Part shown: one piece after another, positions 19,855 to 58,764 of the stretch
Layout of the letters: each line of letters begins with the position of its first letter
Numbering within the stretch: the stretch's first letter is position 1
Sequence record: OQ703618.1
DNA length: 64,000 bases
From: Escherichia phage GADS24
Strand: one strand, 5' to 3'
The notes under the pieces: model-generated
Databases searched by the model: none
What the model saw: only the letters and a program-made list of their open reading frames with translations
Told to the model about the DNA's origin: nothing
Translations under genes and position numbers: made by a program

Positions 19855-21168
19855 TCAAATAAAATGGACGTCAAACCGACCACGAGTTGTGCCAACATAC
19901 AATAACTGTTTAGCTAATTCTGAATCGGCATAATGGATACACGGTGTATAAACAAAGGCCGTGTCAACAGACATACCCTGGGCCTTATGGAAGGTTGATA
20001 CTGGTAGTGCCTTCACCTTAGTGAACATACGTTTAGCATCCCAGAATTCGCTCCATGGAGCTTTACCACCTTTATTCCAAAATTTGTATGTTTCTGCGGT
20101 TTTAGCCAAAAACAAATTGAATTTATAAAGCTCTTCTTCAGAAGAAATAACCTTTATATCTTCGCGGATGTATTCTTCATCATCCCCATATGTTTCTACT
20201 GTAAGATTCCAGTATCGTATCATATATTCGCCTGAAACACCCCGTGCTTTAACAAATGTAGACGTTTCTACAGCATCTCGAATACGAACGAATTGTCCGT
20301 TATTGAAAAGCATTTCAGTCATATTTTTGCCATCTAACTTATATGTCTTGGTAAACGGCTCTTGTAGAACAATGACTTCATCTTTAATAAATGGCTTTTC
20401 TGTTTCGAGAAGTTTTCGGCGAATAATTGAATTTAACTTGTCTACTGACTTATTTGTGAATGCCATCATTCGATTTTCGAAAAGGTCTTCAGGAGTTTTA
20501 ACGACGTTAAAATAATTCATCATATACGATTTAAGGTCTGTATATCCGTGAACACCGTGCCCATCAACTACTTTATCGTAAATCCATTTGCCATTACGAA
20601 TATCAGTCGCAACATCAATAATTGGTGCATTGCTACGTTTAACTTCTGTAAGGTTGCATTGCACGAAGTCTTTGTGTGTGAAGAAAGGACTTAGATACGC
20701 AGTTGATTCGCCTGGGTCTACCGGACGAATTTGGCATCGGTCGCCGATTCCAATTACTGTACACCATTTAGGGATACTAGCTAACATTATTTTAAACAGA
20801 GAACGGTCGCACATTGACGCTTCATCAAATAACAGCACACGGCACAAGGCTAAGTCTGGAACCTTTTTCTGTTCAAATAATACGTTTTCTTCGTATGTAG
20901 TTGGGTTGATTTTAAGAATGCTATGAATAGTCGATGCTTCTTGACCTGCGAGTTTGCTTAGAACCTTTTTAGCAGCATGTGTAGGGGCTGCTAAAATAAT
21001 ACCTGATTCTCCAGAAGAAATAAGGGCTTCAACGATGAATCTAGTAAGGGTTGTTTTACCTGTACCAGCAGGCCCATTAATAGTTACGTGATGTTTCTTT
21101 TCTTTAATAGCGTTCATAACAACGTTGAAGGCGTTTTTCTGGCCTTCAGTCAAATCATCAAATGTCAT
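19855..21168 (-). CDS. dda: Dda DNA helicase (SF1)
   Basis: 437 aa; Walker A GPAGTGKTT, helicase motifs, MTFDDLTEGQKNAFN matches recalled T4 Dda. Confidence 0.9.
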   Translation of the reverse strand: MTFDDLTEGQKNAFNVVMNAIKEKKHHVTINGPAGTGKTTLTRFIVEALISSGESGIILAAPTHAAKKVLSKLAGQEASTIHSILKINPTTYEENVLFEQKKVPDLALCRVLLFDEASMCDRSLFKIMLASIPKWCTVIGIGDRCQIRPVDPGESTAYLSPFFTHKDFVQCNLTEVKRSNAPIIDVATDIRNGKWIYDKVVDGHGVHGYTDLKSYMMNYFNVVKTPEDLFENRMMAFTNKSVDKLNSIIRRKLLETEKPFIKDEVIVLQEPFTKTYKLDGKNMTEMLFNNGQFVRIRDAVETSTFVKARGVSGEYMIRYWNLTVETYGDDEEYIREDIKVISSEEELYKFNLFLAKTAETYKFWNKGGKAPWSEFWDAKRMFTKVKALPVSTFHKAQGMSVDTAFVYTPCIHYADSELAKQLLYVGTTRGRFDVHFI

Positions 21169-29789: not shown

Positions 29790-30002
29790 CTATTTTAAAC
29801 TTTTGCGAAATTTGCGTTTTTCTTGACGAATCTGTCGTTTAGTCGGACGTACAGCAAATTTAACGAAGTCCACTTTGCCATGTGGAAACTTTTCAGATGC
29901 TTCACAGTCCATCATTAGTTCCCATCCTTCCAGAATAAGAGCTTTCCATTGTGTAGTTGATGCAAATTCGTATGTTGATGGTTTAAACACAGTTGAATAC
30001 AT
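29790..30002 (-). CDS. Small basic protein, member of the RPTK(R/K)Q C-terminal motif family
   Basis: Trimmed to MYSTVFKP with SD GAGGA; C-terminal FAVRPTKRQIRQEKRKFRK shared with ORFs at 57505 and 58109. Confidence 0.45.
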   Translation of the reverse strand: MYSTVFKPSTYEFASTTQWKALILEGWELMMDCEASEKFPHGKVDFVKFAVRPTKRQIRQEKRKFRKSLK

Positions 30003-30003
30003 A

Positions 30004-30195
30004 TTATCCTCTGAAATCAGCTTCAAAAACTTTCTCGTCATTAACAAATGCTTTAACTAATGCTTTGTTCACTTCAGCAAGTTGTACCGTAACCCACTCG
30101 ATTTCTTCGCGATCACCTGATAACATGATATCTTTAGTGAACATCTCACCACTTTTAAACCAACCAATAAAAGTAACTTTAGTTAATTTGCTCAT
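30004..30195 (-). CDS. dmd: Dmd (inhibitor of RnlA/LsoA toxin RNases)
   Basis: 63 aa from ATG; FIGWFKSGEMFTKDIM..AEVNKALVKAFVNDEKVFEADFRG matches recalled T4 Dmd. Confidence 0.8.
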   Translation of the reverse strand: MSKLTKVTFIGWFKSGEMFTKDIMLSGDREEIEWVTVQLAEVNKALVKAFVNDEKVFEADFRG

Positions 30196-30509
30196 ATTTC
30201 CTCGCAAAATGCCCATTCAGCGTGATAAACTGTAGCACCTTTAGTATTATTCATTTGAACTACGTCTACCGGAGAAATTACTCGATAGAGACGTGGTTCA
30301 CCTCCATAAGAGCGTGCTGCTCGTCCTGCATAAATCTTTGCTAAACCAATATCTTCAGTAAAGAATACACGATCCAGGTTTTTCTTACGTCCAGTTTCAG
30401 ACAGAACTCCTGTTTCCTCAGGAGGACAAAGCATGTTTTCGATGTTAGCTGAACTACTTGAACCGTGATAAAAAATCTTAAATTCTGCTTTACAATCGAT
30501 GGTTTTCAT
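30192..30509 (-). CDS. Hypothetical protein (105 aa)
   Basis: Minus-strand ORF with ATGA overlap to dmd; promoter cassette upstream. Confidence 0.5.
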   Translation of the reverse strand: MKTIDCKAEFKIFYHGSSSSANIENMLCPPEETGVLSETGRKKNLDRVFFTEDIGLAKIYAGRAARSYGGEPRLYRVISPVDVVQMNNTKGATVYHAEWAFCEEI

Positions 30510-46845: not shown

Positions 46846-48534
46846 TTATGAAACAGTCATTACCGTAAATCGTCCAACTTTGCTCATCTGAAGATGTTGT
46901 CCATAACGTTGAGGGTCATGGTCTCGATGAGAGATAATGAACACGTTAGTATTTTGTAAACTTCCAAGAATGGTATCTATAGCCTTAACAGCCTCAGAAT
47001 CAACAGCACCATCAAAAACCTCATCAAGAATCAGAGTGTTGATTTTAACACCAGAGACCTTTTCAGCAATATCTCGCCATGTAAACAACAACGCGATATC
47101 GATACGTGCTTTTTCACCTTGACTAAATGAAGCATAACTAAAATCTTCACGACCACGTGATTTTATAGATTCATTGAATTCTTCGTCAATAGAAAACACG
47201 TAATCAGCTTCCATAATTTTAAGATAATGATTAATCTGTTTGTTGAACAGAGGCACATATTTTTTAATGATAGCACCTTTAATACCAGAATCTTTTAACA
47301 TATCTGTGATAATACCACGATGGTATTTTTCAAGAACGATATCTGATTTTGTTTTAATGATTTTATCAAGTTCTTTTTGAAGCAAAGCTATCTCATCGGC
47401 ATGGTCGATAAATTCAGCCGAGGCTTGTTCTATTGCAGCTTTAACTTTCTTAGCTTTATCAATAGTGGCAATCATTGCTTGTTTCTTGGTACGAATATCA
47501 GATGCAAGGTCCTGTTTAGTCTTAACATTAGCTCTATATTCGTCCACTAGGACACTCAGATTATCTCTGTGACATGTAAGTTGCTCGAATGAGTGATTAC
47601 ATTCGTGAAGCTTATCGGTAATCTTAGAGACAATAGGATCACCCTGGTGCAACTGTGATGCACAAGTAGGACATGTGCCACCATCATGATACATCTTAAT
47701 AACTTTGTTATATGAGTCGATTTTAGATTTAATCAAGAATGCTTCTTGTCCGATCTTGTTGAATGCCTCAGTAGGGTCTTCGTCAAGAACGATATTAAGT
47801 AGACGCTCGTTAGCTTCTTCAATTTCTGCTTTTAATGAACGAGCTTCTTTGGCTAGGTCGTCATACATATTCTGTAGACGCGCTACATTATCACCAGATA
47901 ATTTCTTTTGACGTTCGATATTCTCGTTATAAATCTTAATTTGTTGGATAACACCATCTTTCTTGGCATCGAGAACTTGTCCCTGGGAATTAAGTTCTCG
48001 AACTTGAGACTTATTGATTTTATCCATTTCAGCGAGTGTGCCGACTTCTAAAAGGTCTTCGACAAGTTTTCTACGAGCAGGGGTGCTAAGAGCCATGAAA
48101 GGGGTATACCCTGCCGTCCCAAGCACAACGATTTGTTTAAAAGACGCGTATGACATTCCGATGCTACGTTCAAATTCTTCTTGGAAGTCACGACTGCTGG
48201 CAGATTCATCAAGACGAACACCGTCAACGGAGATTTCGAAAATATTGGGTTTTTGGCCGCGTTTAATGAAGTATTTTTTATCATCGAATTCCATCCAAAG
48301 CTCAACTAAGAGCTCTTTCTTGTTCGTGCTATTAATGATTTGCCCTTTCTTAACATCACGAAATGGTTTACCGAAAAGTCCGAAAGTAATGGCTTCTAAC
48401 ATCGTAGATTTACCACCGCCATTTTTACCAGTGATTAATGTCTTTTGGACTTTATCTAATTGGATATCAATAGGATTCCCGCCTACCGACATGATATTTT
48501 GATAACGAACACGATTTAATTTAAATGATTTCAT
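46846..48534 (-). CDS. 46: Recombination endonuclease subunit gp46 (SbcC/Rad50-like ATPase)
   Basis: 562 aa; Walker A GKNGGGKST, coiled-coil middle with CPTC zinc hook, Walker B LILDE. Confidence 0.9.
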   Translation of the reverse strand: MKSFKLNRVRYQNIMSVGGNPIDIQLDKVQKTLITGKNGGGKSTMLEAITFGLFGKPFRDVKKGQIINSTNKKELLVELWMEFDDKKYFIKRGQKPNIFEISVDGVRLDESASSRDFQEEFERSIGMSYASFKQIVVLGTAGYTPFMALSTPARRKLVEDLLEVGTLAEMDKINKSQVRELNSQGQVLDAKKDGVIQQIKIYNENIERQKKLSGDNVARLQNMYDDLAKEARSLKAEIEEANERLLNIVLDEDPTEAFNKIGQEAFLIKSKIDSYNKVIKMYHDGGTCPTCASQLHQGDPIVSKITDKLHECNHSFEQLTCHRDNLSVLVDEYRANVKTKQDLASDIRTKKQAMIATIDKAKKVKAAIEQASAEFIDHADEIALLQKELDKIIKTKSDIVLEKYHRGIITDMLKDSGIKGAIIKKYVPLFNKQINHYLKIMEADYVFSIDEEFNESIKSRGREDFSYASFSQGEKARIDIALLFTWRDIAEKVSGVKINTLILDEVFDGAVDSEAVKAIDTILGSLQNTNVFIISHRDHDPQRYGQHLQMSKVGRFTVMTVS

Positions 48535-57465: not shown

Positions 57466-57494
57466 GTTAAACCCTTACCTTAAATAGATAAGGG

Positions 57495-57502
57495 TATTTA
57501 TA
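57495..57502 (-). promoter_or_regulatory. T4-type late promoter (TATAAATA) upstream of gene 49
   Basis: Reverse complement of TATTTATA about 30 nt upstream of the gp49 start. Confidence 0.5.
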
Positions 57503-57504
57503 AT

Positions 57505-57684
57505 TTAGTAAACGTTATAAAAGTCTCGATGAAAACGTTTATATTGACGAATCATTTTCTTAGTAGGACGTGTTACTGAAATAATTGAAGTAGTCATAGT
57601 CGGATTGTTTGGAGCGCCAGTCATAACAAATTTCCAGGATTTTTGTCCATTTTTTCTTTCACCATAAAATAATTCAGTTTTCAT
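57505..57684 (-). CDS. Small basic protein (59 aa), RPTK(R/K) motif family
   Basis: ATG ORF MKTELFYGERKNGQKSW..VTRPTKKMIRQYKRFHRDFYNVY; below track cutoff; paralogous to 58109-58279 and 29790-30002. Confidence 0.4.
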   Translation of the reverse strand: MKTELFYGERKNGQKSWKFVMTGAPNNPTMTTSIISVTRPTKKMIRQYKRFHRDFYNVY

Positions 57685-57693
57685 AATAAACCT

Positions 57694-58107
57694 TTAACTT
57701 AAACGTCTTTCTAAATATTCAATGTATTCCGCTGCGGCTTGCATCAGATTACCTTCATAACCATCATTATTTTCTTGGGCGGCTAATTTAGCTAAAGCAT
57801 AAGAAATACGTTCACCTTCGAATTCGCCAAGTCCACCATCACAAACTACTTGGTCAATTTCTTCGAGTTCATCTATTGAATGGGATTCCCAGAAGCACCA
57901 AAGAGAAGTATCACGGTCATAGATGCAAAGTTTCTCACCTGTGTTCAACATCACTTCGATAATGCCATGGTCACCATAACCATCTTCGGTAGTAGTACCA
58001 ATTACCTTGATGATCGTATCTTTCTTTAATTCAGGAAACTTGTCTTGTAGTTCTTCGTCTTCTTTAACAATCTTGAACCATTTACCGCGAGTTTCAGAAA
58101 TATTCAT
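57694..58107 (-). CDS. Hypothetical acidic protein (about 137 aa from internal ATG)
   Basis: Trimmed to MNISETRGKWF; track version overlaps the adjacent small ORF in another frame. Confidence 0.5.
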   Translation of the reverse strand: MNISETRGKWFKIVKEDEELQDKFPELKKDTIIKVIGTTTEDGYGDHGIIEVMLNTGEKLCIYDRDTSLWCFWESHSIDELEEIDQVVCDGGLGEFEGERISYALAKLAAQENNDGYEGNLMQAAAEYIEYLERRLS

Positions 58108-58108
58108 A

Positions 58109-58279
58109 TCAATATCCTCTATAAAAGTTACGATGAGAACGTTTAGCTTTGCGAAGCTGACGTTTAGTAGGACGAACTGTAAATGGTTGTCCAGAGAAAA
58201 AATTCGGATCGGTTTTAATAAGCAAATACCAATCATGCTCGCCATTTTTTAATAAACGGTACAATAATTTAACTTGCAT
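58109..58279 (-). CDS. Small basic protein (about 56 aa), RPTKRQ motif family
   Basis: Trimmed to MQVKLLYRLLKNGEHDW..FTVRPTKRQLRKAKRSHRNFYRGY; track start is TTG. Confidence 0.4.
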   Translation of the reverse strand: MQVKLLYRLLKNGEHDWYLLIKTDPNFFSGQPFTVRPTKRQLRKAKRSHRNFYRGY

Positions 58280-58407
58280 AATAATCTCTTCCCATTTCCA
58301 TATCAATTAATTCATTTATTGAAGGTTCATCATAACATGGTTCTTCGTCGTTGTAAACCGTTTCGACGTCTGGCTCGACAGTCTCCCATCGAGCAGAATA
58401 CCACGGT

Positions 58408-58764
58408 TTAACCCCGGAGTTTATTGAGCTCTTCATAATCAATCCAGGATTCTAGCCCTGATGGCAGGTCACATTCAATGTTCCACAGAAGCTCTTCAAT
58501 GGCTTGCAGGCGATTATATTCTTCAATGGTAATGGTAACCATTGGTGCAACCGGTTCTGCCTTTTTAACCATCATATCGTTCATCAGGACGTAAAGGTCA
58601 TCACGAACGACAGTGTCGTTCCAACCCCATGATTTGGCTTCGTAAGCTAATGATGAAGGGAGCACATTTAAAACTTCAATAATAGTTGGAGCATCAGGAC
58701 CAAGTTCATTGGCACAAACTTCGTATACATCTTGGAAATCTTTAAGATTTAATGAATATGTCAT
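58408..58764 (-). CDS. Hypothetical protein (118 aa)
   Basis: ORF with ATGA overlap to nrdC. Confidence 0.5.
   Translation of the reverse strand: MTYSLNLKDFQDVYEVCANELGPDAPTIIEVLNVLPSSLAYEAKSWGWNDTVVRDDLYVLMNDMMVKKAEPVAPMVTITIEEYNRLQAIEELLWNIECDLPSGLESWIDYEELNKLRG

Follow-up and report, generated by a model that had tools for sequence, protein, structure and literature searches.

Three small open reading frames (ORFs) of a T-even phage encode basic proteins that end in the same R-P-T-K-(R/K) motif, and two of the three bracket one and the same gene. This raises the questions of whether the three form a protein family, what the common ending does, and what purpose the two bracketing copies may serve. 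The DNA in question is a stretch of 64,000 nucleotides (nt) from Escherichia phage GADS24 (OQ703618.1; the whole stretch is called the window below), a T-even phage that resembles RB69 and belongs to the genus Mosigvirus. The original prediction placed three related ORFs at 57505-57684 (ORF A), 58109-58279 (ORF B) and 29790-30002 (ORF C); these coordinates are confirmed, and all three ORFs lie on the minus strand. The gene of 137 amino acids (aa) that it saw flanked by two of them near gene 49 is pin, and the third ORF does indeed adjoin dmd. We find that all three belong to the Pfam family DUF7279 and that ORF C is TifA, the phage inhibitor of the toxin ToxN. The family, the function of its motif (the RNA-binding helix of TifA) and TifA as a named anti-defence protein are already known, and the basic picture of family and motif is therefore unchanged. 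The new, modest, result is that two selectively maintained, TifA-like paralogues bracket pin in RB69-like phages and drive rearrangements of the locus.

ORFs A, B and C score 58.1, 53.8 and 72.1 bits, respectively, against DUF7279 (PF23945), the gathering cutoff of which is 24.5 bits (E-values of 8.5e-16, 1.8e-14 and 3.5e-20). As each protein matches the profile far above the cutoff, the three-way resemblance is not due to chance. Every homologue found bears PF23945 as its precomputed Pfam label. In PHROG, A and B fall into phrog_3272 (A with E = 2e-30) and C into phrog_2375, each of the proteins also matching the other profile. The alignment of A, B and C shows the common C-terminal motif to be invariant: a W, the R-P-T-K, an R, a K-R and a further R are the same in all three, and the N-terminal W together with R-P-T-K…R..K-R..R stays invariant across 12 further homologues aligned with them. 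A six-frame scan of the window with a profile built from A, B and C returned only these three ORFs (the next match having E = 0.18), and a 15-member profile detected no further family copy in nucleotides 1-100,000 of RB69, the remaining ~100-157 kilobases (kb) lying outside the scan. Among 1.84 billion cluster representatives searched with HMMER only 13 matched at E <= 1e-3, a pattern scan of IMG/VR yielded only two loci, and the best Foldseek matches in BFVD were other small proteins of T4-like phages (S16, Merlin, CBH8) that are themselves uncharacterised and carry no functional label. The DUF7279 family is narrow, or too short for remote detection. The assignment of A, B and C to this family and the identity of ORF C as TifA are practically certain.

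ORF C (70 aa; MYSTVFKPSTYEFASTTQWKALILEGWELMMDCEASEKFPHGKVDFVKFAVRPTKRQIRQEKRKFRKSLK) corresponds to gp61.4 of RB69. It differs from the published TifA(RB69) by one residue, T16 for S16, and it is 100% identical to proteins of several other Mosigviruses. gp61.4 was renamed TifA in the work that described the two-gene dmd-tifA locus, in which T4 gains resistance to toxIN through dmd-tifA amplification; TifA co-precipitates with ToxN, the endoribonuclease of toxIN, a toxin-antitoxin (TA) system of type III, and rescues ToxN toxicity, the RB69 protein being the most potent among the homologues tested (PMC9391042). Co-precipitation with ToxN, or rescue of toxicity or of plating on toxIN cells, has been published for the TifA proteins of T2, T4, T6 and RB69. 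ORF C has the synteny of a tifA gene: its ATG follows directly after the stop codon of dmd (30004-30195, minus strand; 19964-20155 in the RB69 annotation), the gene of the antitoxin against RnlA/LsoA, which adjoins tifA upstream in the same early operon. The dmd region is 98.6-99.3% identical to that of RB69-group phages. ORF C also carries the loop around position 41 (…EKFPH41GKVDF…); this position is F in T4 and H in RB69, and the loop differs between clades and is thought to tune the recognition of ToxN (PMC10853763).

The function of the common ending has been established on the RB69 protein. TifA(RB69) binds RNA in vitro and co-purifies with RNA, the dissociation constant (KD) of TifA for RNA being 0.36-2.3 µM, and RNA, single-stranded DNA and double-stranded DNA are bound without marked sequence specificity (PMC10853763). 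In the AlphaFold model of TifA a beta-sheet of three strands packs against a basic C-terminal helix, with a loop of ~20 residues in addition, and the conserved features of the family are a Pro-Thr cap and a basic cluster (PMC10853763). Both the P53A/T54A and the K55A/R56A/R59A substitutions of TifA(RB69) abolish RNA binding as well as ToxN neutralisation, and it was proposed that ToxN is trapped on abundant RNA such as 16S rRNA (PMC10853763). The motif of ORF C, R52-P53-T54-K55-R56-Q-I-R59 (numbered from M1; encoded by 29793-29849, minus strand), is made up of the residues mutated in TifA(RB69), hence the R-P-T-K-(R/K)..R motif is the experimentally defined RNA-binding element. According to this model, the TifA of the window would be made early from the dmd-tifA operon, would bind RNA through its Pro-Thr-capped basic C-terminal helix and, together with RNA, would bind and trap ToxN, by which the ToxIN abortive-infection system would be neutralised, as published for the RB69 protein. 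Among phage counter-defence proteins only a few have had their mechanism worked out; TifA is one of these, and the way in which it acts, the trapping of a toxin on RNA, is unusual.

ORFs A and B retain this element. In the ORF A protein (59 aa; MKTELFYGERKNGQKSWKFVMTGAPNNPTMTTSIISVTRPTKKMIRQYKRFHRDFYNVY) the motif reads R39-P40-T41-K42-K43..R46, which is encoded, with the helix, by 57508-57570 (minus strand); in the ORF B protein (56 aa, counted from the ATG; MQVKLLYRLLKNGEHDWYLLIKTDPNFFSGQPFTVRPTKRQLRKAKRSHRNFYRGY) it reads R36-P37-T38-K39-R40..R43, encoded with the helix by 58112-58174 (minus strand). The Pro-Thr cap and all six basic stripe positions of TifA are conserved in both. AlphaFold2 (AF2) models ORF A with strands at residues 2-9, 15-24 and 27-36 and a helix at 42-58 (mean predicted local distance difference test score, pLDDT, 87.9), and ORF B with strands at 2-9, 15-24 and 27-33 and a helix at 39-55 (mean pLDDT 81.4); three strands and a terminal helix of 17 residues agree with the published description of the TifA models. 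Both proteins are very basic (isoelectric points of 10.4 and 10.8), the net charge of their tails being +6 and +9, respectively. The original prediction that the basic tails bind nucleic acid thus holds by experiment for the TifA motif (PMC10853763) and by homology for A and B, which, judged by the conserved helix, likely bind RNA. In other respects A and B differ from TifA. They are 30-33% identical to it in amino acids and, with 56-59 aa, shorter than the 70-85 aa of TifA; the N-terminal insertions and the ~20-residue loop of TifA are missing, the beta/loop half is unrelated to that of TifA in sequence, and the neighbours of the two genes are pin and gene 49 rather than dmd. Like TifA, they are small and basic proteins of the early-gene accessory regions of T-even phages.

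Before a function is discussed, the possibility has to be weighed that the motif stems from a non-coding DNA repeat, or that the ORFs are spurious or decaying and remain unexpressed. It is true that a 55-nt direct repeat, with 75% identity between its copies, is present at the helix-coding ends of A and B, that ORF B is frameshifted in RB69, and that truncated versions of 29-45 aa occur in some phages. The substitution patterns, however, speak against a repeat. Pairwise among A, B and C the identity is only 47-57% in DNA and 30-38% in protein, and the synonymous divergence (dS) of 0.8-1.25 is saturated, which implies an old duplication. Orthologues vary mostly at synonymous sites: the ratio of nonsynonymous to synonymous divergence (dN/dS, omega) among Mosigvirus orthologues is 0.098 for A (0.10 when rounded; mean dS 0.40, 28 pairs) and 0.17 for B, compared to 0.16 for pin. 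When ORF A is compared across genera (Mosigvirus, Tequatrovirus RB32, Gaprivervirus VR7, and Dhakavirus JS10 and dhaeg), omega falls to 0.00-0.10 (0.22 in one pair) in the helix half, where the repeat lies, as opposed to 0.10-0.44 in the beta half. Purifying selection is therefore strongest in the motif region, which indicates a coding family and not a DNA repeat; the similarity of A and B within the 55 nt is what strong constraint on the amino acids would produce. Both ORFs have ATG starts and purine-rich ribosome-binding sites (AAGG 8 nt upstream of the ATG in ORF A), their AF2 folds are confident, and ORF B is intact in 12 of the 13 sequences that carry it, the RB69 reference being the exception. 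At the A/B locus no Rfam family was recognised (the sole match, E = 0.21, is at chance level) and a repeat search revealed no tandem RNA repeat. The shared non-coding repeat, which the original prediction had named as a possible refutation, was consequently rejected on the substitution patterns in spite of the 55-nt similarity, and we hold it, together with spurious or decaying ORFs, to be very improbable. The pattern of substitutions and the translation signals suggest that A and B are very probably expressed proteins; a literature search on RB69 and other Mosigviruses found no ribosome profiling (Ribo-seq) or proteomics for these phages.

The supposition that default gene calling would miss A and B turned out to be only occasionally true. 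Coding sequences (CDSs) for both are annotated in most related GenBank records, ORF B appearing as a 56-aa CDS in p000y, pEK20, phiC120, SA79RD and SSE1; the ATK47 annotation lacks both, and the RB69 reference gives B as only 38 aa. ORF A is 100% identical to RB69ORF087c and ORF B, which is intact in the window, corresponds to RB69ORF089c; the two RB69 genes are listed only as hypothetical proteins. A 65-aa alternative of ORF B with a TTG start is also present in the ORF list of the window. The RB69 reference has a run of seven A in RB69ORF089c (locus L001, ~1757-1873) in place of the six A found in the window (58230-58250) and in 11 other phage or contig sequences examined. The additional A shifts the frame after 15 codons of ORF B, which results in the 38-aa annotation; either RB69 has a true pseudogene here or the sequence of 2003 contains an error.

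What, then, are A and B for? On balance we favour the reading that the window encodes three TifA-family members, of which C is TifA, and A and B are RNA-binding counter-defence proteins directed at a target other than the ToxN of E. coli. Of the ToxN proteins tested, not one was neutralised by the TifA homologues of JS98, VR7, EcS1 and others (PMC10853763), which means that membership in the family does not imply the same target. With the helix kept, the loop half shorter and different, and distant homologues inactive, RNA binding is inferred for A and B and an action on E. coli ToxN is unlikely; they probably do not act on it. Taken by itself, the proposal that they serve counter-defence against a target different from ToxN(Ec) is a tentative one, somewhat less likely than not; our guess for the target is another host RNA-directed effector, e.g. 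another type III or RNase toxin. A and B would be expressed together with pin as a compact early unit. They retain the whole RNA-binding module and, in the models, the beta3-alpha fold, but have a different and shorter beta-sheet/loop half, which in TifA is the half believed to determine target specificity; with it they would tether or block the host effector. The counter-defence reading fits the setting, since A and B are situated among accessory early anti-host genes: pin acts against Lon, and the nearby T-even counter-defence genes include gp49.2 (anti-OLD) and nrdC.5 (anti-Dsr1). Their distribution is patchy as well, which is typical of accessory anti-defence genes: B is present in ~145 Mosigvirus records and the Mosigvirus-type A in ~55, many Tequatro-, Dhaka- and Gapriverviruses carry genes of the A type, and T4 has neither. 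The search for homologues in other Tevenvirinae that the original prediction had suggested thus located orthologues of ORF A in Mosigvirus, Tequatrovirus, Dhakavirus and Gaprivervirus, in each case immediately upstream of gene 49.

Several observations weigh against this reading. In A and B the segment that matches the position-41 loop of TifA has 3-7 residues fewer, bears no sequence relation to it and takes the form of a tight hairpin in the models, while in TifA the ~20-residue loop with position 41 is predicted to reach the active site of ToxN. A and B also depart from the dmd-tifA synteny, their place being on either side of pin, upstream of gene 49. The experiments on TifA homologues covered ten proteins of 70-98 aa, none of them a pin-flanking paralogue, and a literature search under family, ORF and paralogue names found nothing on the function of A or B. 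ORF A is absent from AV112, p000v and many other Mosigviruses, as well as from T4, and ORF B is frameshifted in the RB69 reference; this implies that neither gene is essential, and some lineages may be in the course of abandoning one or the other. Finally, the consensus scan that supplies the putative early promoter of the block (see below) operates at about chance level, with 8 sites found against 6.7 expected.

Two other functions were considered for A and B. They might be extra ToxN inhibitors, which would raise the effective dose of TifA or cover other ToxN alleles and would help to explain the weak effect of toxIN on RB69-like phages. Dose does matter, given that T4 escapes toxIN simply by amplifying tifA; toxIN restricts RB69 much less than T2, T4 and T6, to which the paralogues may contribute; and the RNA-binding helix required for the trapping of ToxN is fully conserved in A and B. 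The low toxIN sensitivity of RB69 has been ascribed to its TifA alone, and for the published work the presence of the two paralogues is a caveat. Against an action on ToxN, the beta/loop half of A and B is unrelated to that of TifA at an overall identity of only 30-33%, and the homologues of JS98 and VR7, which are much closer to TifA than A and B are, failed on every ToxN tested; furthermore, TifA(RB69) expressed alone from a plasmid reproduces the stronger protection, and the phage that shows the phenotype, RB69, is the one with the frameshifted B in its reference sequence. We therefore consider additional ToxN inhibitors to be quite unlikely. Alternatively, the role of A and B as small general RNA-binding proteins could be one of housekeeping or regulation (in mRNA stability, in translation, or linked to Pin and Lon), with no inhibition of any defence. 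The unspecific nucleic acid binding of TifA would suit such a role, as would the physical and probably translational coupling of A and B to pin, from which they are separated by spacers of 9 and 1 nt, and the A-type tail fused to the Pin of Tequatroviruses could hint at a functional link. A and B are dispensable and patchy, however, which would be unusual for a core regulator; neither the Pro-Thr cap nor the first basic residues are present in the Pin tail, and a scar of recombination between direct repeats is the simpler explanation for it; and the only characterised member of the family is a counter-defence protein. A general RNA-binding role is accordingly unlikely, if slightly less so than additional ToxN inhibition, and we retain the counter-defence reading with a target other than E. 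coli ToxN.

Apart from TifA itself, the known systems closest to A and B are Dmd, PinA and the ToxI-type RNA repeats. Dmd (T4 gp61.5), like TifA, is small, made early by the phage and directed against an endoribonuclease toxin of the host, which it neutralises, and it is encoded in the same 'anti-TA island', but it is unrelated to the TifA family in sequence, and the 15-member profile had no match to Dmd in the six-frame scan. The action of Dmd is through direct binding of protein to protein, and it is not known to use a basic helix that binds RNA. PinA (PF10465), the neighbour of A and B, is also a small early phage inhibitor of a host enzyme, with a different fold and from a different family. 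The ToxI RNA and the pseudo-ToxI repeats of phages are another route to the neutralisation of ToxN, but they are RNA repeats and not proteins. Within the TifA family itself, A and B are two candidate proteins in which new anti-defence activities may be sought, and a comparison with them could show which part of TifA determines the choice of target.

The surroundings of A and B are those of RB69, with 98.7% identity across the 1-kb region around the locus. ORF B, pin and ORF A form a tightly packed block: ORF B lies upstream of pin and its TGA stop is 1 nt before the ATG of pin, the stop of pin is 9 nt before the ATG of ORF A, and gene 49 (endonuclease VII) comes after ORF A, which hence stands between pin and gene 49. 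pin (57694-58107, minus strand; PHROG 2167, and named so in the RB69 annotation) encodes the PinA inhibitor of the host Lon protease; the 137-aa protein matches Pfam Inhibitor_I24 (PinA, PF10465) with E = 3.4e-47, residues 7-137 aligning with positions 2-136 of the 136 of the model. About 50 nt before ORF B there is an early-promoter-like site, (G)TTTACA-17 nt-TATGAT with an upstream TG (58329-58357, minus strand), found by the consensus scan with 10/12 matches. It reads GTTTACA-17-TGtTATGAT in the window, its equivalent in SA79RD is annotated as a T4-type early promoter, and it probably drives B-pin-A. The gap of 39 nt between ORF A and gene 49 contains a late-promoter motif, TATAAATA (57502-57495, minus strand), which is an annotated late promoter in SA79RD, and a hairpin with a 7-base pair stem, ACCCTTA...TAAGGGT (57495-57471, minus strand), which is an annotated terminator in ATK47; together (57471-57502) they constitute the predicted end of the B-pin-A block. 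This motif and hairpin are kept in T4, RB32 and ST0, whichever gene stands upstream of them.

The T4 genes 49.1 and 49.3 were considered as equivalents of A and B, and were rejected. The gp49.1 of RB69 is a separate ORF, and T4 has no free-standing A or B. The counterpart of T4 gene 49.1 in the window is an acidic ORF of 57 aa (58269-58442, minus strand) which overlaps the start of ORF B by 11 nt, contains the early-promoter-like site and is unrelated to the TifA family.

The two helix-coding repeats, 604 nt apart, bracket pin (copy 1, 57516-57570, at the helix-coding end of ORF A; copy 2, 58120-58174, at that of ORF B), and related phages carry the traces of exchange between them. In phage ST0 (L012, 1001-1171) and in an IMG/VR locus (L005, 2474-2671) pin is missing and the place directly upstream of gene 49 is taken by a single chimeric gene. 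The chimera consists of the body of ORF B and the last three residues of ORF A (…NFYNVY), with the junction in ACTTTTATA, a sequence common to both helix-coding repeats. A crossover inside the shared ACTTTTATA accounts for such a pin-less B/A chimera, the paralogues acting as direct repeats that delete pin.

A second type of rearrangement concerns Pin itself, to the C-terminus of which in T4 the family profile matches. The 161-aa Pin proteins of T4 and RB32 end in …SFSD(R/Q)MI(Q/R)QYKRLHQMFYNT, which matches the end of the A-type protein of RB32, …RPTKKMIRQYKRLHRMFYNT; the tail of 16-20 aa (…MIQQYKRLHQMFYNT) is homologous to the end of the C-terminal helix of the A-type paralogue. In T4, where pin is at 46897-47382 (L002, 2898-3383), this tail is outside the Pfam PinA domain (residues 4-141), and the 137-aa Pin of the window is devoid of it. 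In RB32 (L003, 979-1677) both pin and A carry at their ends a tail sequence of ~51 nt together with a 22-nt repeat. The T4 arrangement seems to have arisen by a deletion between such repeats, which would explain the lack of ORF A in T4. The surroundings of pin provide a clear case from nature of deletion and fusion mediated by paralogues.

ORF A alleles appear to be exchanged as well. In near-identical Mosigviruses the dS of A is ~0.4-0.57, as opposed to ~0.05-0.1 in the adjacent pin and 0-0.06 in B, which suggests that the allele of ORF A was replaced by recombination. As a more speculative extension, DUF7279 could be a modular platform of 'RNA-tethering inhibitors', in which the invariant Pro-Thr-capped basic helix would anchor the protein to abundant cellular RNA and a swapped, fast-evolving beta-hairpin would capture different RNA-directed defence effectors of the host; A and B would then inhibit a defence nuclease or toxin against which no T-even phage countermeasure is known so far, and recombination at the helix repeats would reshuffle the locus, giving rise to the loss of pin, the B/A chimeras and the tail of the T4 Pin. 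In this full form we regard the scheme as rather unlikely, though worth stating.

The dmd-tifA neighbourhood holds one further ORF of note, of 105 aa (30192-30509, minus strand), just upstream of dmd. It corresponds to RB69ORF040c and is labelled 'ADP-ribosyl transferase' in the RefSeq record of phage HX01; it may be a further accessory or anti-host gene of this neighbourhood.

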